Shown: positions 1 through 26,189 of the stretch, piece by piece
Layout: each line of letters starts with the position of its first letter
Position numbering within the stretch: position 1 is the stretch's first letter
IMG/VR virus record: IMGVR_UViG_2698536450_000021
Span: 1-34,493 of that record
DNA from: a virus
Taxonomy: Duplodnaviria; Heunggongvirae; Uroviricota; Caudoviricetes
Strand: one strand, 5' to 3'
DNA length: 34,493 nt
Program-made: the position numbers and the translations under genes
The notes under the pieces: model-generated
Database searches by the model: none
Seen by the model: the letters and a program-made list of their open reading frames with translations, nothing else
What the model was told of the DNA's origin: nothing

Positions 1-234
1 ATGCGTAATATTGAAACCCTCTCGACTAAAACCGGACCGGATGACGCAGGACTTAATATTTTACTGACAGAGGCTCGTCTGGAAGAACGTCGGGCAAGGG
101 CTGAGGCAATGGCTGCCCGCCTTGATAGCCTTGCGTGTCATATCACATCCCGCCAGCTAAACCACGTCGAAGCAGCAGAACTGCTGCGTGTGACTGCTGA
201 AGCAATCCAGAACGAAGCGCAGGAGGTCCACTAA
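1..234 (+). CDS. hypothetical early-region phage protein (77 aa; window begins at its first ATG, true 5' end uncertain)
   Basis: ORF with stop at 232-234 overlapping the next start (TAATG); no motif recognised. Confidence 0.35.
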   Translation: MRNIETLSTKTGPDDAGLNILLTEARLEERRARAEAMAARLDSLACHITSRQLNHVEAAELLRVTAEAIQNEAQEVH

Positions 235-461
235 TGGCTGATGCAATGGATCTCGTACAGCAGCGCGTTGAAGAAGAACGCCAGCGCCATATCCGTGCTG
301 CCCGTACCAAAACGCCGGGCGTGTCCCGCGTACTTTGCATTGAATGTGAAGCGCCAATTCCGCCAGCACGACGCCGCGCCATTCCGGGTGTGCAGCTTTG
401 CATTACCTGTCAGGAAATCGCAGAGCTGAAAGGCAAGCACTACAACGGAGGTGCTGTATGA
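234..461 (+). CDS. TraR/DksA-family C4 zinc-finger protein
   Basis: 75 aa with CIEC...(17 aa)...CITC spacing typical of the TraR/DksA C4 finger; stop overlaps next start (ATGA). Confidence 0.75.
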
Positions 462-760
462 CAAGGGCAGTGCGTATCCATCAATTAAAAATTGCACCTA
501 AGTATTTCAACGCTGTGGTTGCAGGTCAAAAGACGGCTGAACTTCGTAAAGACGATCGTGGCTATAAAGTTGGTGATGTTCTTTCTCTTTGCGAATGGAA
601 GCATGCTGTATTTACGGGTAGGGAATGGGCCGCTGTTATCTCTCATGTGCTTCCGGCTAATGACGTCATGGCAGTTTCAGAAAAATGGGTGATGCTATCA
701 ATTCGCCCATTAACCCCATTAGAAGCTTTAGGATATGTTATTGCAGGAGGTGCTGTATGA
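458..760 (+). CDS. DUF3850/ASCH-like (PUA-fold) small protein
   Basis: ATG at 458 preceded by GGAGG. The N-terminal block [35 protein letters not shown] matches the DUF3850/ASCH pattern as I remember it. The longer track ORF from 398 is an upstream in-frame extension. Confidence 0.6.
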
Positions 761-1614
761 GCACCATCCTGAAATGGGCGGGAAATAAAACCGCCATTAT
801 GTTCGAACTGAAAAAACACCTTCCTGCTGGCCCGCGACTGGTTGAACCTTTCGCGGGTTCCTGTGCTGTGATGATGGAGACGGATTACCCCAGCTATCTG
901 GTTGCGGATATTAATCCTGATTTAATCAACCTCTATAAAAAGGTTGCCGCTGATTGTGAATCGTTTATATCTCGCGCCAGAGCTTTATTTGAGGAAGCAA
1001 ACAGGGAGGTGGCTTATTACAACATAAGGCAGGAGTTTAATTACTCCACTGAAATTACTGATTTCATGAAAGCGGTATATTTCCTGTATCTCAATCGTCA
1101 TGGTTACCGTGGATTATGTCGCTATAACAAGAGCGGGCATTTCAACATTCCGTACGGTAATTATAAAAATCCGTATTTCCCTGAAAAAGAAATTCGCGCA
1201 TTTGCAGAGAAAGCCCAGCGTGCAACGTTTATCTGCGCAAGCTTTGATGAAACGCTGGCGATGCTGCAGGTGGGGGATGTGGTGTATTGCGATCCGCCGT
1301 ATGACGGTACGTTTTCCGGCTATCACACTGATGGTTTCACTGAAGATGACCAGTATCACCTGGCATCCGTTCTTGAACATCGGTCATCAGAAGGACATCC
1401 GGTCATTGTTTCTAACAGTGATACATCCCTGATCCGTTCGCTGTATCGCAATTTTACTCACCACTACATCAAGGCAAAACGCAGCATCGGTGTAGCAGCT
1501 GGTGAGAGTAAATCTTCAACAGAAATCATCGCTGTTTCCGGGCCGCGCTGCTGGGTGGGATTTGATCCTTCGCGTGGCGTGGATAGTTCTGCCGTGTACG
1601 GAGTGCGTGCATGA
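757..1614 (+). CDS. DNA N6-adenine methyltransferase (Dam-like)
   Basis: N-terminal ILKWAGNK motif and catalytic DPPY (1291-1302); ATG at 757 after GGAGG; stop overlaps the start of gene A (ATGA). Track ORF 685-1614 is an upstream extension. Confidence 0.85.
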
Positions 1615-4025
1615 GCCATGCTGATATGAACAACTGCAGCGGCTTTAACGAGGTCGCCGCAGCATTCTCATGGAACAGCCCGAAAAAGGCCATTAACCCT
1701 TATCTGGACCCGGCGGAAGTTGCGCCGGTTTCTGTGCTTTCAAACCTGATCACTCTGTACGCTACCGATAACGAGCAGGAACAACTGCGCCGCGAGGCTC
1801 TGAGTGATCAGGTATGGGAGCGTTATTTCTTTAATGAATCACGTGATCCTGTCCAGCGCGAAATGGAGCAGGATAAGCTCATTAGCCGGGCAAAGCTGGC
1901 GCATGAGCAGCAGCGTTTTAATCCGGGCATGGTCATCCTGGCGGACGTTAACGCCCAGCCTTCCCATATCAGCAAGCCGCTGATGCAACGTATTGAATAC
2001 TTCAGCAGCCTGGGCAGGCCAAAGGCTTATTCCCGCTATTTGCGTGAGACGATTAAGCCATGTCTGGAACGACTGGAGCATGTACGCGACAGTCAGCTAT
2101 CCACTTCTTTTCGCTTTATGGCAAGCCATGAAGGGCTGGACGGTCTGCTGATCCTGCCTGAAATGAGTCAGGATCAGGTGAAACGCCTGTCCACCCTGGT
2201 AGCTGCGCATATGAGCATGTGCCTTGATGCCGCTTGTGGCGATTTGTATGCCACCGATGACGTTAAGCCAGAAGAAATCCGCAAGACATGGGAAAAGGTG
2301 GCGGCGGAAACCCTGCGACTGGATGTCATACCACCTGCGTTTGAGCAACTCCGCCGGAAAAGAAACCGCCGTAAACCCGTGCCCTATGAACTCATTCCGG
2401 GGTCGCTGGCGCGTATGCTGTGCGCCGACTGGTGGTATCGGAAATTGTGGAAGATGCGTTGCGAATGGCGGGAAGAGCAGTTGCGTGCTGTTTGCCTGGT
2501 CAGCAAAAAAGCATCTCCCTATGTCAGCTATGAAGCCGTGATGCATAAACGTGAGCAGCGCCGTAAGTCGCTGGAGTTTTTCCGTTCTCATGAACTGGTG
2601 AACGAAGACGGCGACACGCTGGACATGGAGGATGTGGTAAACGCCAGCAGCAGCAACCCTGCGCATCGCCGCAATGAGATGATGGCCTGTGTTAAAGGTC
2701 TGGAGCTTATCGCGGAAATGCGCGGTGACTGCGCCGTTTTCTACACCATCACCTGTCCGTCACGTTTCCATTCCACGCTAAATAACGGCAGGCCCAACCC
2801 GACCTGGACAAATGCGACGGTAAGACAAAGCAGTGATTATCTGGTCGGCATGTTTGCTGCATTTCGTAAGGCGATGCACAAAGCCGGGTTGCGCTGGTAT
2901 GGCGTGCGGGTGGCTGAGCCGCATCATGACGGCACAGTTCACTGGCACCTGTTGTGTTTCATGCGCAAAAAAGACCGCCGCGCCATTACTGCATTGTTGC
3001 GTAAGTTTGCTATCCGTGAAGACCGCGAGGAGCTGGGTAATAACACGGGGCCACGCTTTAAGTCTGAGCTGATAAACCCGCGCAAAGGAACGCCGACTAG
3101 CTACATCGCGAAATACATCAGTAAGAACATTGACGGGCGTGGTCTGGCTGGCGAGATCAGCAAGGAAACGGGTAAATCTCTGCGTGATAACGCTGAATAC
3201 GTTAATGCCTGGGCGTCTCTGCATCGTGTTCAGCAATTCCGCTTCTTTGGCATTCCGGGGCGTCAGGCTTACCGTGAACTGCGATTGCTGGCTGGTCAGG
3301 CGGCAAGGCAACAGGGTGACAAAAAAGCAGGTGCGCCGGTACTGGATAACCCGCGCCTTGATGCCATTCTGGCTGCAGCTGATGCTGGTTGTTTTGCCAC
3401 CTACATCATGAAGCAGGGCGGCGTACTGGTTCCCCGTAAATATCACCTCATCAGAACCGCTTATGAAATCAACGAAGAGCCGACCGCCTATGGCGATCAC
3501 GGCATTCGTATTTATGGCATCTGGTCACCCATTGCAGAGGGCAAAATCTGCACTCATGCCGTGAAGTGGAAAATGGTTCGTAAGGCCGTTGACGTTCAGG
3601 AGGCGGCAGCCGACCAGGGCGCTTGCGCCCCTTGGACTCGTGGCAATAACTGTCCCCTTGCTGAAAATTTGAACCAACAGGAGAAAGATAAATCAGCTGA
3701 TGGGGACACCAGAACGGATATTACCCGCATGGATGACAAGGAGTTGCACGATTATCTGCATAGTATGAGCAAAAAAGAGCGCCGGGAACTGGCAGCAAGG
3801 TTACGCCTGGTTAAGCCGAAACGGCGTAAAGACTACAAACAGCGAATTACAGATCATCAGCGACAGCAGCTCGTCTATGAACTGAAGTCCAGAGGATTTG
3901 ATGGCAGCGAGAAAGAGGTCGATTTACTCCTTCGCGGTGGCAGTATTCCGTCAGGAGCAGGCCTGCGTATCTTCTATCGGAACCAGCGTTTGCAGGAAGA
4001 TGATAAGTGGAGAAACCTGTATTAA
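1611..4025 (+). CDS. replication initiation endonuclease, P2 gpA / 186 A family (rolling-circle nickase)
   Basis: 804-aa ORF carrying the conserved tyrosine block [12 protein letters not shown]; position upstream of the cos/late region matches P2/186 organisation. Confidence 0.88.
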
Positions 4026-4117
4026 TTACGCGGGTTAACAATTCGTGCTCTTAATAATACCAGGCATATCAGGCTGATGAACGTAAAAAAACGTTTTACA
4101 TCAGTAAGATTATTATA

Positions 4118-4152
4118 TACTGTAAATATAAACAGTGGTTATATTTACAGTA
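4118..4152 (+). promoter_or_regulatory. LexA (SOS) box TACTGTAAATATAAACAGTG (4118-4137), overlapped by a weaker half-matching box (4133-4152), in the promoter region of the small-ORF/DinI-like operon
   Basis: CTGT-N8-ACAG core at 4120-4135 with an AT-rich spacer; 14-bp perfect inverted arms 4118-4131 / 4139-4152; TTTACA -35-like hexamer at 4095-4100; AGGAGG RBS then ATG at 4178. Confidence 0.6.
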
Positions 4153-4177
4153 TTGCTTTGGTGTCATAGGAGGAAAG

Positions 4178-4366
4178 ATGCAGGACTATTTTTTGGAGTC
4201 TTTGAAGCTCCAGCGCATTGATTTTTTTCTTAAGCTTGTAGCGGCTAGTGAGTGTAGTGATGAAGAGAAGGGGCTGGCTCTGCAGTGGGTTTCTGAACTG
4301 ACAGATGAACTCATGGCAAAAATCAGAACCCACGAATACAACCGCTCAATGGATGTCATCAGCTGA
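4178..4366 (+). CDS. small hypothetical protein (62 aa), first gene of the putative SOS-controlled operon
   Basis: ORF with strong RBS (AGGAGG 4169-4174) directly downstream of the LexA box; no recognisable domain. Confidence 0.45.
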   Translation: MQDYFLESLKLQRIDFFLKLVAASECSDEEKGLALQWVSELTDELMAKIRTHEYNRSMDVIS

Positions 4367-4376
4367 GGTGACTTTT

Positions 4377-4610
4377 ATGCGCATTGAAATAATGATCGAT
4401 AAAGAGCAGAAGATTAGCCAGTCTACACTGGACGCCCTTGAATCCGAGCTTTACCGCAATCTGCGCCCCCTGTATCCCAAAACGGTAATTCGTATTCGCA
4501 AAGGTAGCTCTAACGGTGTGGAACTGACCGGACTGCAACTGGACGAAGAAAGAAAACAAGTGATGAAAATTATGCAGAAGGTGTGGGAAGACGACAGCTG
4601 GCTGCATTAA
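4377..4610 (+). CDS. DinI-like protein (phage Tum/DinI family)
   Basis: 77 aa; MRIE...DALESEL...KIMQKVWEDDSW aligns by eye along its length with E. coli DinI. ATG at 4377; the track ORF from 4305 is an upstream extension. Confidence 0.75.
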   Translation: MRIEIMIDKEQKISQSTLDALESELYRNLRPLYPKTVIRIRKGSSNGVELTGLQLDEERKQVMKIMQKVWEDDSWLH

Positions 4611-4745
4611 GAAACGTTGCTGGCGTCTGAACTTGTTTCTGGCGTCAGCAAGGTTGAACAACGAGCCCTTGCGAGGCGTTAGCTCTGTAGTGCATGTCTA
4701 TGCCGCATGAGATCGCATGATCGTTTGAGGATCGTTTTTGCTAAG

Positions 4746-4770
4746 GCCCGCCAGAACTGGCGGGCTTTTG
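4746..4770 (+). terminator. rho-independent terminator after the DinI-like operon
   Basis: GCCCGCCAG / CTGGCGGGC 9-bp perfect stem followed by TTTT. Confidence 0.55.
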
Positions 4771-4814
4771 CGTAGATCATGCACCTGCATGAAAACCACT
4801 ACATAAAGCGGGCA

Positions 4815-4833
4815 GGCGTGGCGGGGATACGAG
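4815..4833. other. cos-like sequence (possible cohesive-end site) GGCGTGGCGGGGATACGAG
   Basis: First 12-13 nt resemble the P2/186 cohesive-end motif GGCG(A/T)GGCGGGGA as I recall it, followed by a GCGCGCT run. Recalled from memory, not verified. Confidence 0.3.
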
Positions 4834-4885
4834 CGCGCGCTATCACGTAAAATAGGCAAAATACTTCTGGAAAACAGAAAGTTGA

Positions 4886-6832
<1,947 letters not shown>

Positions 6833-6836
6833 TGAA

Positions 6837-6871
6837 CAGCCCTAACGTTATGAATGCTAAGGCTGATTTTT
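6837..6871 (+). terminator. possible terminator downstream of the RT gene
   Basis: Imperfect hairpin CAGCC...GGCTG (6837-6865) followed by ATTTTT. Confidence 0.35.
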
Positions 6872-6873
6872 CG

Positions 6874-7902
6874 TTAAAATTTATATGGTTTGAATTGTAA
6901 TATATTATCTTCAAGCCATTTATTTAATTCCTGCATCCTTTTCTGTAAGGGTATTAATTCGTTCCTCACAAACACTAAACTCGCTTTTTCCACATCCCCA
7001 AACCCCCCGACATTATTTGGCATAATCCCCATCATTTGCGGTGGCACACGGTGCGCTGCCATCATGTCATCGCGGCTGACATTTTTGATATTCAGAAACT
7101 CATCCTTCGCCGCCACTTCTGACAACGGGATAATCTGAAGCCCGTCCTTTTTACCGTTAGGCGAGTACATAAACAGGTTACGGAAGTTACCAGGACCTTT
7201 GGCGCTTTTCATCGCATTGCGGAGGTTGTTCACATCCTCCTGGTTCTGCGCTGCATCGGTCATGTACATGATGAAGCCTGCATGACTGCCGTTAATGTAA
7301 TACTTGCGGCGGAACAGCGTGGCGGACTCGTTGAGCAGAGCTGACGGAATGGCAGAAAGATAACCGGGCAGGCCGTAGATCTCCTGGTTGATGTCCGGTT
7401 CCATCAGATGAAAAATGTTGCCTTTCGTGAACTGATACGGCTGCGTAGTCATGCCGTATTGCACAAACCAGTAGGTATCAAGGTCTAACCCGCGTCGGGT
7501 GTATTTTGCCAGTGCAGGCTCAAGGGCGATAACTTCACCGAAGCGGTTCGTGCGTTTCTCCAGGTAGGCGTTACCAAAAACCAGATAGTCCTGTACAAAA
7601 CGCGAAAAAGCCTGCTGGCTGAGCAGCGGGTGAGGGATGTAGGTGCTGGTCAGAATGTTGCACTTCACTGCAATCGGTGAGCTGTGATGCACGGCGGCGC
7701 GGAAGGTTCGCGCCAGTCCGTCGAAACTCACAGGCGGCTCGTACCAACGATCCATCTGTACGCATTCCACATAGTCCAGCAGTTCGCGGCGGTCCAGAAC
7801 AGGAACGGGATCACCGAAGCTGAATGCTTCGGCTGAAGTCTGGCTTTTATGCTGGATCTGTTTCGTCGACGCAGCGCGGTTCTTCTTACTCTTTCCCATC
7901 AA
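6874..7902 (-). CDS. portal protein (P2 gpQ-like)
   Basis: 342-aa ORF recognised as P2-family portal; start overlaps the terminase stop. Confidence 0.88.
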   Translation of the reverse strand: MMGKSKKNRAASTKQIQHKSQTSAEAFSFGDPVPVLDRRELLDYVECVQMDRWYEPPVSFDGLARTFRAAVHHSSPIAVKCNILTSTYIPHPLLSQQAFSRFVQDYLVFGNAYLEKRTNRFGEVIALEPALAKYTRRGLDLDTYWFVQYGMTTQPYQFTKGNIFHLMEPDINQEIYGLPGYLSAIPSALLNESATLFRRKYYINGSHAGFIMYMTDAAQNQEDVNNLRNAMKSAKGPGNFRNLFMYSPNGKKDGLQIIPLSEVAAKDEFLNIKNVSRDDMMAAHRVPPQMMGIMPNNVGGFGDVEKASLVFVRNELIPLQKRMQELNKWLEDNILQFKPYKF

Positions 7903-9665
7903 AAAATCTCCACAATATTGCTGGTATTGGCGGACTCGCCCTGCAGCGGTTCGTTAAACAGTGCGTGCATTGTTGCCCAGGCCAGATCGGCATGGCTGGC
8001 TTCTTCGCTGCGGCTGGCTTCATAGGTCGGGCGGTTGCCACTGGCAGTGGTAGCGCGACGGATTGCCATAAATGACTGCGCAATGTCGGTGTGCCCGGCG
8101 TCAAACTCCAGACGGCGGTGGCTGATAATGTCGTAGGCCTTGAGTACCAGGGCGTTTTTAACGTTGGGGTTATAGACAAACTCCCTGACGGCAGGAAAAA
8201 ACGCTTTCACGTTCTCGTAAACCCCGTGACCGACGCCGGTCGAGTCGATACCGATATAGGTCACGTTATACTGTTCGGTCAGTTTTTTGATGGCGTCAGC
8301 CTGGGCGCGGAAGTCCATCCCGCGCCACTGGTGACGCTCAAGAATGCGGAACTTACCACCCGGCACGGCTGGCGGAGCCACCACCACGCATCCGGCACTG
8401 TCGCCGTTCTGCGTACCTTTTGCCGGGTCATAACCGATCCACACTTCGCGCCAGCCAAACGGGTGCAGGGCCAGTGCATGAAAGTCGGTCCAGACTTCCC
8501 AGCTGTCCACCATGCACGCCTGCAGTTCGCTGAGCGGGAACACGGACGCGAGATCGTCCACGAACTCGCACATCAGCAGGTTCTGGTATTCGTCCGGGCT
8601 GTACTCCATGCGCAGCTGGTCGAGGTCGAACAGGTTACAGCCGCCGCGCACCGCATCTTCCACGGTGACTATCTGGCGGTATTGCCCGTCTGCGCACAGC
8701 AGGCCGGGGGCCAGATTGCTGTGGGACAGGTCGATGTCCACCTTGTCAGCTTTGTTGCGTCCACGGTTGAACAGCGCACCGGACCAGAACGGATAAGCAC
8801 TGTGGGTCAGGCTGGATGGCGTGGAAAAATAGGTTTGTCGCCATTTCTTGTGAATAGCCATCCCGGAAGCCACTTTGCGCAGCTCCTGGAATTTCGGTAT
8901 CCAGAAATATTCATCCAGATACAGGTTGCCGTGATAACTCTGGGCCGTGCGGGCATTGGTGCCGAGGAAGTAAAGCGTGGCTCCGTTAGGAAGCACCATC
9001 GGATCGCCTTTTAGCTCCACCTCGACTTCTTTGGCGAAGTCGATGATGTATTGTTTAAAGACGTGGGCCTGAGCCTTACTGGCAGAAAGGAAAATCTGGT
9101 TACGTCCGGTAAGCAGGGCGTCAATCAGGGCTTCACGGGCAAAATAGAAGGTCGCGCCGATCTGGCGAGACTTCAGCAGGTTGCGGATGCGGTTGGTTTT
9201 TCCGGCTTCCCACCAGTGGCGCTGGTAGTTGAACATGGAGGAATGGAAGATTTCTTCCAGCTTCTCAATCTGCTCATCGGTGAAAACATTCTTTTCCGGC
9301 TGACGGCGCGGGCCTTTGTTGCGGTTGGCGACGTTAGGGTTTAAGTCGGCTTCGTTGCCGCCATTGTTAAATTTGCCGATCCGCGCGTGGCGCTCCGACT
9401 GGCGCGCCAGCAGGTCAATCTCTTTGAAATCTTTCCCTTCTTTGTGCTCCTTCATGATGAGCTGGCAGTAGCGTGCGGCGGTGGTGAGCTGCATCTGATC
9501 CAGCGGCCCATAGTCACCCCACTTGTCGCGTTTTTTCCAGCTGTGAACGGTTGCAACTTTCTCGCCCAGCATTTCAGCAATGCGGGCTACGCGGTATCCC
9601 TGAAAGTACAGCAGCATGGCCTGCCGACGGGGATCGAGATCTGCGGGTGTCAGTGTGGTGTTCAT
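7899..9665 (-). CDS. terminase large (ATPase) subunit (P2 gpP-like)
   Basis: 588-aa ORF transcribed divergently from the capsid operon, as in P2. Confidence 0.88.
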   Translation of the reverse strand: MNTTLTPADLDPRRQAMLLYFQGYRVARIAEMLGEKVATVHSWKKRDKWGDYGPLDQMQLTTAARYCQLIMKEHKEGKDFKEIDLLARQSERHARIGKFNNGGNEADLNPNVANRNKGPRRQPEKNVFTDEQIEKLEEIFHSSMFNYQRHWWEAGKTNRIRNLLKSRQIGATFYFAREALIDALLTGRNQIFLSASKAQAHVFKQYIIDFAKEVEVELKGDPMVLPNGATLYFLGTNARTAQSYHGNLYLDEYFWIPKFQELRKVASGMAIHKKWRQTYFSTPSSLTHSAYPFWSGALFNRGRNKADKVDIDLSHSNLAPGLLCADGQYRQIVTVEDAVRGGCNLFDLDQLRMEYSPDEYQNLLMCEFVDDLASVFPLSELQACMVDSWEVWTDFHALALHPFGWREVWIGYDPAKGTQNGDSAGCVVVAPPAVPGGKFRILERHQWRGMDFRAQADAIKKLTEQYNVTYIGIDSTGVGHGVYENVKAFFPAVREFVYNPNVKNALVLKAYDIISHRRLEFDAGHTDIAQSFMAIRRATTASGNRPTYEASRSEEASHADLAWATMHALFNEPLQGESANTSNIVEIF

Positions 9666-20478: not shown

Positions 20479-21137
20479 GCTTCCATAAGGATTATAAAAT
20501 GTCGAGCATAATATACTACAGCTCTATAAATAATGCATTTTACCCTGAGCATTTGAAACAAGAATATATTAAATCTAATTCTTTTCCAGCAGATGCAAAA
20601 CCCGTTAAATATTCTGTTTTCGAAGAATTTGCACTTAAACCAGCACCAGAAGGAAAATACAGGTGCGTTGGTGAAGATGGAATGCCATCATGGGCAGATA
20701 TTCCACCACCAACACATGAGGAACAGATTGCCGCAGCCGAATTGAAAAAGCAGCAATTGATTAACCAGGTCAACGAATACATGAACAGTAAACAATGGCC
20801 CGGTAAAGCGGCTATTGGTCGTCTGAAAGGTGAGGAACTGGCGCAATATAATTTGTGGCTGGATTATCTGGACGCACTGGAACTGGTTGATACCTCCAGT
20901 GCTCCAGATATTGAATGGCCTACGCCTCCGGCAGTTCAGGCCAGATGACATCCGGCGCGGTGCTGGTATCTGTTGCCGTCACCGCGTCAATGTAATCCAG
21001 CACGGCGTTAAGTCGGGTGTTTTCTGTCTGCGTCAGCTTCCGCCCGGCCTGTAATTTCAGTTGAATCAGACTGATAGAAGCCATTGCAGCATCAATCAGC
21101 GACTGGCGCTGTGCTTCTGCCGCTTCTACTGCGGCGC
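20140..21137. repeat. 998-bp perfect inverted repeat, left arm (variable H cassette A + Tfa-A + inverted 3' fragment of Tfa-B); partner at 22704-23701
   Basis: Paired coordinates sum to 43841; identical ORF translations appear on opposite strands in the track (e.g. 20475-20948 + and 22893-23366 -). Confidence 0.9.
20499..20948 (+). CDS. tail fibre assembly chaperone, Tfa-A (P2 gpG / Mu U-like)
   Basis: ATG at 20499 after AAGGA; conserved C-terminal Tfa block; follows the fibre gene. Confidence 0.8.
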   Translation: MSSIIYYSSINNAFYPEHLKQEYIKSNSFPADAKPVKYSVFEEFALKPAPEGKYRCVGEDGMPSWADIPPPTHEEQIAAAELKKQQLINQVNEYMNSKQWPGKAAIGRLKGEELAQYNLWLDYLDALELVDTSSAPDIEWPTPPAVQAR

Positions 21138-21138
21138 A

Positions 21139-21821
21139 TGCTGATTACCAGCAGTACGGACAATATCACCCTGAAAATCGACCCTGCTGTAGTGCTGGCA
21201 ACCCGTAAATACGTGGATGATGAAGTCCTGGAATTAAAGCTGTATGTGGATGACCAGATGAGAAACCACATTGCCGCACAAGATCCTCATACCCAGTATG
21301 CGCAGAAACATAATCCGACATTTACCGGAGAACCAAAAGCGCCGACGCCTGCAGCAGGAAATAACACCACGCGGATTGCGACCACTGAGTTTGTTCAGGC
21401 CGCTATTACTGCTCTGATTAACGGTGCGCCAGCCACGCTGGACACACTGAAAGAAATTGCCGCAGCCATTAACAATGACCCGAAATTCAGTACCACCATT
21501 AACAATGCGCTGGCACTAAAAGCGCCGCTGTCGAGTCCGGCACTCACCGGAACGCCAACAGCACCTACTGCGGCGCAGTCGGTCAACAATACACAGATTG
21601 CCACTACGGCTTTTGTGAAATCGGCGATTGCAGGAATGGTGGGTTCTGCACCTGCGGCACTGGATACACTGAACGAACTGGCGGCGGCACTGGGGAATGA
21701 TCCGAACTTTGCCACGACAATGCTTAATGCGCTGGCAGGTAAACAACCGCTGGACAATACGCTTACCAATTTGAGCGGAAAGGATGTATCTGGTCTTCTC
21801 ACATACCTTGGTTTGGGAGAA
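21139..21821. repeat. 683-bp direct repeat, copy 2 (truncated duplicate of the H middle region, ending in crossover site 3)
   Basis: Identical to 19457-20139; junction with the upstream inverted-repeat arm at 21131-21143. Confidence 0.85.
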
Positions 21822-22319
21822 GGTTCGGCATTACCCGTTGGTGTGCCTGTTCCGTGGCCTTCCGCCACTCCGCCAACAGGCTGGCTGAAATGCAACGGTG
21901 CAGCATTTTCTGCTGAAGAATACCCGGAACTGGCAAAGGCTTACCCGACAAATAAATTGCCTGATTTACGTGGTGAGTTTATTCGTGGCTGGGATGACGG
22001 ACGTGGTATGGATACGGGGAGGGCAATATTATCAGCTCAGGGCGATGCCATACGTAATATCTATGGTGAGTTCAGAACTGTAAACACTGAAAATTATTCA
22101 ATATGGGAAACAGCAGGCTCGTTTAAGGGGGCCATAGTGCCATTGAGTCCCTCTACAAACAATAGTTATTTCTCCTTAACCAGAAGTATGGTGACAGAAA
22201 GAGCAGACGGCGCTGTTTACCCAAAAGTGATTGGCCTTGATGCTTCAAGAATTGTTCCAACTGCAAACGAAAATCGACCCCGTAACATTGCCTTTAATTA
22301 TATCGTGAGGGCTGCCTGA
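21139..22319 (+). CDS. promoterless alternative tail-fibre cassette: duplicated H middle segment fused to a distinct C-terminal domain (cassette B)
   Basis: In-frame continuation through site 3 into a different C-terminus (GSALPVGVPVPWPSATPPTGWLKCNGAAFSAEEYPELA...), a collar/receptor-binding-type tail-fibre end; lacks the H N-terminus, so probably silent in this configuration. Confidence 0.55.
21796..21821. repeat. gix/hix-like crossover site 3 (identical to site 1, direct orientation)
   Basis: Same 26 bp as 20114-20139; sequence diverges from the H copy immediately after it (variable cassette B). Confidence 0.6.
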
Positions 22320-25673: not shown

Positions 25674-26189
25674 ATGGCTTTACCACGTAAATTAAAACAC
25701 CTGAACCTGTTTAACGACGGGAATAACTGGCAGGGGATCGTTGAGTCGCTGACGCTGCCGAAATTCACCCGCAAATATGAGAAGTATCGCGGCGGCGGAA
25801 TGCCGGGTGCAGTGGATGTGGATCTGGGGCTTGATGACAGTGCGCTGGACACAGAATTTTCCATTGGTGGTACTGAACTGCTGCTGTTTAAACAGATGGG
25901 CAAAGCCACGGTGGATGGCATCCAGTTGCGCTTTACCGGCTCTATCCAGCGTGATGATACCGGGGAAGTGCAGGCCGTGGAGCTTGTGGTGCGTGGACGT
26001 CACAAAGAAGTGGATTCCGGCGAGTGGAAGACGGGCGAAAGCAACACCACCAAAGTGACCAGTACCAACAGCTACGCGAAGCTGACTATCAATGGTGAGG
26101 TGCTCTATGAAGTGGACCTTATCAACATGGTGGAAATTGTGGACGGTGTGGACTTGATGGAAGCGCACCGCAACGCCCTCGGCCTCTGA
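25674..26189 (+). CDS. tail tube protein (P2 gpFII-like)
   Basis: 171 aa directly after the sheath gene. Confidence 0.88.
   Translation: MALPRKLKHLNLFNDGNNWQGIVESLTLPKFTRKYEKYRGGGMPGAVDVDLGLDDSALDTEFSIGGTELLLFKQMGKATVDGIQLRFTGSIQRDDTGEVQAVELVVRGRHKEVDSGEWKTGESNTTKVTSTNSYAKLTINGEVLYEVDLINMVEIVDGVDLMEAHRNALGL

Follow-up and report, generated by a model that had tools for sequence, protein, structure and literature searches.

Overlapping stop and start codons (ATGA or TGATG), with the Shine-Dalgarno (SD) sequence of the second gene inside the upstream open reading frame (ORF), couple translation in the trp and gal operons and in many phage operons. Phage evolution is reportedly modular, with boundary or "linker" sequences between interchangeable genes, among them the boundary sequences described in lambdoid phages, and phages are also said to carry morons, extra genes with their own promoter and terminator that separate two genes which are neighbours in closely related phages. 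Exact direct repeats lying near each other are classically prone to deletion, and deletions between short direct repeats have reportedly been described at the lacI hotspots and elsewhere. We have analyzed a locus that invites comparison with all these systems. It is found in a stretch of 34,493 nucleotides (the window), the whole of the IMG/VR virus record IMGVR_UViG_2698536450_000021 (Caudoviricetes). There, a 15-mer, GGAGGTGCTGTATGA, occurs twice around a gene for a small protein of the DUF3850/ASCH family (ASCH in what follows), which lies between a TraR/DksA-type gene (TraR) and the gene of a Dam methyltransferase (Dam). From sequence comparisons we consider it probable (roughly 0.7) that the 15-mer is the standard translational-coupling connector of the TraR-to-Dam part of the early operon of P2-like (Peduoviridae) prophages, and that ASCH is an optional 299-bp module located between two copies of it.

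The two copies of GGAGGTGCTGTATGA are exact, both on the + strand, at 447-461 and 746-760, with a spacing of 299 bp from start to start. Each of them contains an SD sequence and the ATG of the downstream gene, overlapped by the TGA of the gene before it. The features of the locus are the following:

1-234, + strand: DUF2732 gene, similar to P2 orf80 (Pfam PF10809, E 6e-29); its TAA overlaps the ATG of TraR.
234-461, + strand: TraR/DksA-type C4 zinc-finger gene, 75 amino acids, ending NGGAV (Pfam PF01258, E 3e-11); its TGA is at 459-461, and its last four codons plus the stop are connector copy 1.
447-461, + strand: connector copy 1, GGAGGTGCTGTATGA, with the extended SD GGAGGTG, the spacer CTGT, the ASCH ATG (458-460) and the TraR TGA (459-461).
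458-760, + strand: gene with a predicted DUF3850/ASCH fold, 100 amino acids, ending AGGAV, with ATG at 458-460 and TGA at 758-760 (Pfam, match to PDB 3IUW, AlphaFold2 and Foldseek).
462-760, + strand: optional module, 299 bp, made up of a 284-bp unique body and one connector (two-piece BLAST matches, alignments); its register is ambiguous, as every 299-bp frame from 447-745 through 462-760 describes the same difference.
746-760, + strand: connector copy 2, GGAGGTGCTGTATGA, with the SD and the ATG (757-759) of Dam and the overlapping TGA of ASCH (758-760).
757-1614, + strand: Dam, D12-class N6-adenine DNA methyltransferase, 285 amino acids (PF02086, E 3e-76), with the DPPY motif (VYCDPPYD).
1600-1614, + strand: Dam/gpA junction, GGAGTGCGTGCATGA, a different type of connector that does not fit the J-type motif defined below.
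1611-4025, + strand: gpA, replication initiator/nickase, homolog of P2 gene A, 804 amino acids (PF05840, E 1e-127).

Successive genes are chained by the overlaps TAATG (DUF2732/TraR, 232-236) and ATGA (458-461, 757-760 and 1611-1614). At 458-461 and 757-760 the GGAGGTG ends 4 nt before the ATG and inside the upstream ORF, the arrangement found in coupled genes. The repeat, its ribosome-binding sites, the start/stop overlaps and the whole TAATG/ATGA/ATGA/ATGA chain had been described in the original prediction, made from the letters of the window, and are confirmed here. Because both 15-mers sit at coding ends, TraR and the 100-amino-acid protein share the ending G-G-A-V. The likeness to coupling of the trp and gal type is clear, with a properly spaced SD in the last codons of the upstream gene, an ATG overlapping the TGA and four or five genes chained. 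What differs is that here the 15-nt connector appears verbatim at two consecutive junctions, and in degenerate form at up to four in relatives, and that it gives unrelated proteins one Gly-Gly-Ala/Val-x tail; in the present case the coupling is predicted from the sequence. The window has four further exact direct repeats of 15-16 nt at unrelated places, and an exact 15-mer repeat by itself is not rare in it. The GGAGGTGCTGTATGA pair is non-random in that its copies occupy two consecutive start/stop overlaps in one and the same register, and in that the 299 bp present or absent in relatives are delimited exactly by them. A third near-match, TGAGGTGCTCTATGA at 26096-26110 (13/15 to the connector), is located within a 171-amino-acid ORF (25674-26189), off any gene junction, and was discarded as a chance similarity.

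The presence/absence difference was apparent when positions 1-1900 of the window were compared by megablast with deposited phage genomes. Forty-five phage records gave a match split in two, with a span of 1,601 bp against the 1,900 bp of the query, a difference of 299 bp. These relatives without ASCH had about 96% identity in the flanks, lacked exactly 299 bp and kept one 15-mer. When Salmonella phage RE2010 and Escherichia phage Cartapus were aligned, the gap was exactly the module, and a single GGAGGTGCTGTATGA joined TraR to Dam, which are separated by 15 bp without ASCH vs 314 bp with it. The region was present in 1,239 of 5,426 complete Escherichia coli genomes, and only 77 of the 1,239 had the ASCH insert; in the remaining ones (about 1,160) the 299 bp were absent from each locus among the matches listed. 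A sample of IMG/VR contigs anchored on Dam had ASCH in 10 of 79 loci. A single 15-mer in relatives that lack the gene was what the original prediction expected, and the approximately 45 phage genomes and 1,160 E. coli genomes bear it out. Since the module begins and ends on an identical connector, the C-terminus of TraR (NGGAV), the ribosome-binding site and start of Dam and the ATGA overlaps are unchanged whether the module is present or absent. The locus shows in this way how small accessory genes join or leave a tightly coupled phage operon with the coding and translation signals of their neighbours intact. It illustrates ordinary modular phage evolution clearly, and involves no new mechanism and no new kind of element.

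To see where the connector is used we surveyed the junctions of 80 species-level loci anchored on TraR, taking as J-type motif GGNGGNG[CT]NNNATGA. The family-wide connector motif, GGNGGTGCNNNATGA, comprises an extended SD, a spacer and ATGA. J-type motifs were found at 13/20 TraR/Dam junctions, 4/5 TraR/ASCH, 5/5 ASCH/Dam, 3/5 between TraR and an exonuclease gene (Exo) and 3/5 between Exo and the next gene. Altogether they were present at 33 of the 89 junctions into accessory genes, around TraR, ASCH, Exo, orf61, orf134 and orf201, and so mark module boundaries; in the same survey none were found at the 74 junctions into gpA or at the 28 junctions after Dam. Two loci, L052 (1721-2791) and L087, contain four successive J-type connectors in the row TraR/Exo/orf61/ASCH/Dam, where Exo is RNase_T/DnaQ-like and orf61 has 61 amino acids, and each of the proteins in the row ends with GGA plus one residue. 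A second indel, of 763 bp and containing Exo and orf61 (L052 vs L048), is bounded by J-like copies that form an 18-nt imperfect repeat. The distribution of the motif from TraR to Dam, the rows of four connectors and this second bounded indel lead us to regard the 15-mer as the connector normally used by the optional genes that lie between TraR and Dam. Its working parts would be the extended SD GGAGGTG, fully complementary to the 3' end of the 16S rRNA, the 4-nt spacer and the ATG that overlaps the upstream TGA. Much as has been described for linker sequences, a short conserved sequence edges interchangeable genes of related phages, and the presence/absence differences end exactly there. Unlike those, the connector consists of the ribosome-binding site and the start-stop overlap, so that selection for expression explains its conservation.

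The arrangement is widespread. Searching with the ASCH protein we found about 70 P2-like viral contigs with the order TraR-ASCH-Dam, their ASCH proteins being 58-98% identical to that of the window. Named homologs come from Escherichia, Salmonella, Citrobacter, Enterobacter, Cronobacter, Klebsiella, Lelliottia, Mixta and others. The gene order is the same in Yersinia phage MLG42, at 75.6% nucleotide identity. The exact 15-mer repeat was found in 41 of the 42 loci of the window's own class. Outside this class the left and right junctions match at 8-13 of the 15 positions, as in MLG42 (GGAGGTGCAGTATGA and GGGGGAGCTATATGA) or in locus L075 (GGAGGTGCTGTATGA and GGTGGTGCGGTATGA). Over 13 lineages the identity between left and right copies averaged 11.2/15 within a genome and 11.25/15 between genomes (permutation p = 0.6). 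As the copies of one genome are no more alike than those of different genomes, there is no sign of lineage-specific target duplication or homogenisation, and both this kind of duplication and concerted evolution were discarded on these values. The perfect 15/15 identity in the window is the upper tail of a constrained motif. From these comparisons, TraR-ASCH-Dam is an old arrangement across Enterobacterales prophages and not a recent or site-specific insertion. The original prediction had presented ASCH as a cassette inserted by recombination at a conserved junction. The cassette stands as an optional module limited by two 15-mers; what does not stand is a discrete recent insertion, given how old and widespread TraR-ASCH-Dam is and that ASCH itself varies from 58 to 98% identity. 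Recombination at a conserved junction gets no support from the 8-13/15 matches of the other lineages or from the mosaic joints, which are not enriched at the junction (see below).

Three loci of the collection have altered versions of these genes. In L076 (IMGVR_UViG_643348545_000015, 2501-3577) ASCH is split by an insertion of about 780 bp with IS1-like InsA/InsB ORFs, and both 15-mer connectors are kept. In L067 (about 2795-2824) the ASCH/Dam overlap is ATGG, not ATGA; ASCH has lost its stop and continues for four more codons (GGAEWLPF) into Dam. The Dam downstream of TraR in L121 (about 4225-5100) is in fragments of 109, 66 and 117 amino acids and is probably a pseudogene.

Some findings weigh against a connector that borders an optional module. 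The first is that SD plus ATGA already gives 9-11/15 between unrelated junctions, as at 17218 (GGAGGCCCGGTATGA, 11/15), so that the common descent of the two copies is something we infer. Secondly, long-form ASCH genes (109 amino acids, in Quadragintavirus phages) carry GGCGGCGT, which codes for S-G-G-V/A, where the short form ends. The homologous internal position of this sequence means that copy 2, the right-hand one, may in part be ASCH's own coding sequence, joined to the TraR/Dam junction via microhomology, instead of a duplicated TraR tail. Thirdly, no gain or loss event has been caught in E. coli, where the closest pair of alleles with and without ASCH has 15 differences in 1,887 bp. 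Finally, the DUF3850 literature gives no experimentally assigned role to any member, and the same applies to the function of 3IUW.

The first of these points leads to the possibility that the identical junctions derive only from a shared need for a strong SD, its spacing and ATGA, with neither duplication nor recombination at junctions. The extended SD and the ATGA at fixed spacing cover about 11 of the 15 positions, leaving only positions 8-11 free of SD or ATGA constraint, and the unrelated coupled junction at 17218 reaches the same 11/15. The complementarity of GGAGGTG to the ribosomal RNA and the equal likeness of left and right copies within and between genomes also fit, and the profile of the right junctions predicts that about 1% of lineages match the left consensus exactly, 13 lineages having been examined. 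Against it, the J-type motif, including its positions outside the SD (C8 and the in-frame Gly-Gly-Ala/Val), is confined to TraR-Dam junctions (33/89 vs 0/74 at the equally coupled Dam/gpA and X/gpA junctions), and J-like copies form the exact ends of two independent indels. Convergence between the two ribosome-binding sites accounts for the greater part of the identity, not for all of it, and as a complete account of the locus we find it quite unlikely. Within our preferred reading, that of a connector bordering an optional module, the two copies would derive from an old duplication or from a microhomology-mediated join at the TraR/Dam junction, and would stay alike through selection on the SD, the spacing and the stop/start overlap.

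A direct repeat flanking a discrete 284-bp body, with empty sites that have one copy, is also what would be seen if ASCH travelled on a small transposable or site-specific element that duplicates a 15-bp target. However, the body has no terminal inverted repeats, no transposase or integrase is located nearby, no promoter or terminator signal rises above the shuffled expectation and the diverged lineages do not have matched repeats of their own. Besides, ASCH is found in the same place in phages whose ASCH is only 58-79% identical, and the repeated sequence is itself a functional element, the ribosome-binding site with its start-stop overlap. A mobile element is hardly credible here, and a transposon or miniature inverted-repeat transposable element was rejected on the missing inverted repeats, transposase, promoter and terminator and on the restriction of ASCH to this operon position in P2-like loci. 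The comparison with morons is closer. ASCH is an extra gene, separating two genes that close relatives have side by side, and its G+C content (0.43-0.46) is below that of TraR (0.55-0.61), with Dam downstream similarly low. Promoter and terminator sites of its own were not detected, the sites in 1-2000 being at the shuffled expectation and none flanking ASCH on the + strand; ASCH differs from a moron in being, as far as the sequence tells, a coupled link of the early operon. With integron cassettes the locus shares promoter-less single-gene units, placed head to tail in one operon and in variable number. In contrast to those, there is no imperfect inverted repeat like attC at the cassette end and no integrase in the operon, and the shared element is a 15-nt coding and ribosome-binding sequence.

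Two exact 15-bp direct repeats 299 bp apart, together with alleles that lack one repeat and the intervening DNA, recall the deletions between short repeats. An ancestral ASCH could have been lost repeatedly by slipped-strand or RecA-independent recombination between the repeats, leaving each time one connector and an intact operon. We have examined this in a sample of the E. coli clade comprising 98 unique flank haplotypes, of which 35 have ASCH and 63 lack it. The ASCH state needs 10-20 changes on the flank trees, which would fit recurrent loss, compared with about 29 when the labels are shuffled. Recurrent loss would also be in line with the known behaviour of close exact repeats and with the lineages of degenerate repeats (MLG42-like, L048-L059), all of which keep ASCH. 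So would the similar divergence of TraR, ASCH and Dam when the window class is compared with the MLG42 class (88, 79 and 74% at the amino acid level), which fits an ASCH that is old in the block. On the other hand, alleles with and without ASCH never share a haplotype over the surrounding +/-150 bp, the closest pair being 15 sites apart, and no recent deletion derivative was found among the 98 haplotypes. The ASCH state is also linked to nearby single nucleotide polymorphisms (SNPs), with r2 peaking at 0.35 at -76 and +23 and falling to about 0.04 beyond 200 bp. Since linkage decays within about 200 bp, recombination explains the scatter of the ASCH state over the trees, and recurrent deletion is not required to account for it. 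The variant connector GGAGGTACTGTATGA was found in L177, without ASCH, and in L030, with ASCH; their flanks are unrelated, so that they are not a pair produced by a recent deletion. We regard recurrent precise deletion as unlikely.

The E. coli data are most simply read as an old polymorphism, with ASCH present or absent, that pervasive homologous recombination has reassorted; recurrent slippage is possible and not needed. The module would be moved by ordinary homologous recombination in its flanks. The original event may have been a gain or a loss. Some pairs of haplotypes were identical on one side up to the junction and diverged within 20-59 bp on the other side. The junction had no more pairs with such discordant flanks than control points inside Dam had; it is not a measurable recombination hotspot, which is another difference from the linker sequences. 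The connector was unchanged in 60/63, 35/35 and 34/35 unique haplotypes, the last value being that of copy 2 in the haplotypes with ASCH. Alleles with ASCH had 27 variable sites in the 314 bp of the module and both connectors, one of them inside a connector, too little variation for a significant result on purifying selection.

The 100-amino-acid ORF belongs to the families DUF3850 (PF12961, 84.4 bits, cutoff 22.9) and ASCH (PF04266, 24.7 bits, cutoff 21.2). Its closest solved structure is 3IUW of Enterococcus faecalis (E 7e-9 with the single sequence, 2e-17 with a profile). The AlphaFold2 model, built with 30 homologs, had a mean local confidence (pLDDT) of 89 and a predicted template-modelling score (pTM) of 0.80, the last ten residues, including the GGAV tail, being of lower confidence. 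Foldseek with this model retrieved 3IUW (E 2e-9, template-modelling score 0.90, root-mean-square deviation 1.3 A), followed by ZmASCH, YqfB (an N4-acetylcytidine, ac4C, amidohydrolase of E. coli), PH0355 and TTHA0113, with E about 1e-4 to 1e-3 for YqfB and ZmASCH, and weakly by YTH domains. Pfam, the 3IUW match and AlphaFold2 with Foldseek agree on the DUF3850/ASCH fold that had been proposed for the gene, and the protein is predicted to be a PUA-like beta-barrel. This barrel and an octapeptide are what it shares with the ASCH superfamily (3IUW, YqfB, TTHA0113 of Thermus thermophilus and the RNase ZmASCH of Zymomonas mobilis). The octapeptide, GxKxxExR (G23, K25, E28, R30), is conserved in at least 90% of the 30 homologs and aligns with AGRKTITIR of YqfB (G-x-K21-x-x-T24-x-R26). 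Its Lys and Glu/Thr are catalytic in the characterised ac4C deacetylases (bioRxiv 10.64898/2026.02.27.708502). The protein of the window differs from the characterised ASCH enzymes in its low identity (12-14%; YqfB 12%), an extra C-terminal helix and the low-confidence GGAV tail. PADLOC gave no match for it among known defence families. The protein might bind a flipped-out modified base in nucleic acid, and motif and fold similarity suggest that it may hydrolyse an N4-acyl group like the YqfB-type enzymes. Retention of the catalytic Lys/Glu motif of the ASCH amidohydrolases provides a testable lead for a family that is widespread in phages.

The neighbourhood of the gene gives another kind of clue. 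In 12 of 15 lineages the gene that directly follows ASCH is a D12 Dam, and this adjacency holds when the upstream neighbour is different: the exonuclease (ESSI2_ev040/ev129), orf61 (L052/L087) or orf201 (L124). The segment from TraR to gpA is a cluster of DNA-modification genes, with two kinds of D12 methyltransferase, C5 methyltransferases, PAPS-reductase-domain proteins and the RNase_T-type exonuclease. The locus defines this segment as a variable one in P2-like prophages and gives the DUF3850 protein that context, in which ASCH might be an accessory early function. A functional pair had been suggested. In such a pair ASCH would read, edit or regulate the Dam-dependent N6-methyladenine (6mA), or otherwise require Dam, which would explain its coupled position upstream. 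The Mu-like phage L246, with a DUF3850 gene two genes away from an N6_N4 methyltransferase, would fit, and a role of ASCH domains in reading 6mA has been predicted (Iyer et al. 2016, cited in PMC11037411). ParB-CTPase-DUF3850 fusions are enriched in phages, and in phages ParB-CTPase has either DUF3850 or methyltransferases as fusion partners (bioRxiv 10.1101/2025.10.10.680097). However, ASCH is also found without Dam, before a PAPS reductase (L093), gpA (L123) or DUF5405 (L126 and L247), and Dam without ASCH is the situation in about 94% of the E. coli genomes with the region. Over the 80 species-level loci ASCH was not enriched with Dam (5 with, 3 without). The DUF3850 genes of Gram-positive phages (L077-L085) have no methyltransferase within 2.5 kb, which rules out a universal link between DUF3850 and methyltransferases. 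The 6mA-reader role has no experimental support, and the only demonstrated ASCH activities are N4-acylcytosine hydrolysis and RNase. A functional pair of ASCH and Dam is possible and remains in our opinion doubtful.

A bolder extension would make GGNGGTGCNNNATGA also a recombination linker, by means of which P2-like phages stack and swap promoter-less coupled accessory genes (ASCH, the DnaQ-like exonuclease, small ORFs) before Dam. The result would be a cassette array that needs no recombinase and serves DNA modification and counter-defence, in which ASCH reads or erases a modified base together with Dam. We mention it as a speculation with little chance of being right.

Apart from these questions, the collection provided some observations on the same genomic segment and on distant DUF3850 genes. 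In L086-L165, from TraR (4001-4225) to gpA, there are 0-4 accessory genes, including D12 and C5 methyltransferases, PAPS-reductase-domain proteins of 322-430 amino acids and DUF5405. A family of 276 amino acids without a Pfam match is found in the TraR-gpA segment of L105, L114 and L120. In the Mu-like L246 (JGI 3300064364, with GemA and Mor; 4001-5945) the distant DUF3850 gene comes after Mor, and a Tad2-like gene and the N6_N4 methyltransferase are located within 2 kb.

Elsewhere in the window, an Rfam scan of 1-8000 found no family at gathering score, msr/msd included. Just downstream of gpA there is a large ORF that matches a retron-type reverse transcriptase-Toprim fusion (4892-6832, + strand; PADLOC RT-Toprim_I-C, E 2e-217), and two small ORFs (4178-4366 and 4305-4610) lie between gpA and it. 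Farther along, an exact direct repeat of 684 bp (19457-20140 and 21139-21822) is located inside two ORFs of the size of tail-fibre genes (19078-20478 and 21084-22319). Each of these is followed by an ORF of 157-200 amino acids, and the whole looks like a duplicated tail-fibre/chaperone cassette.

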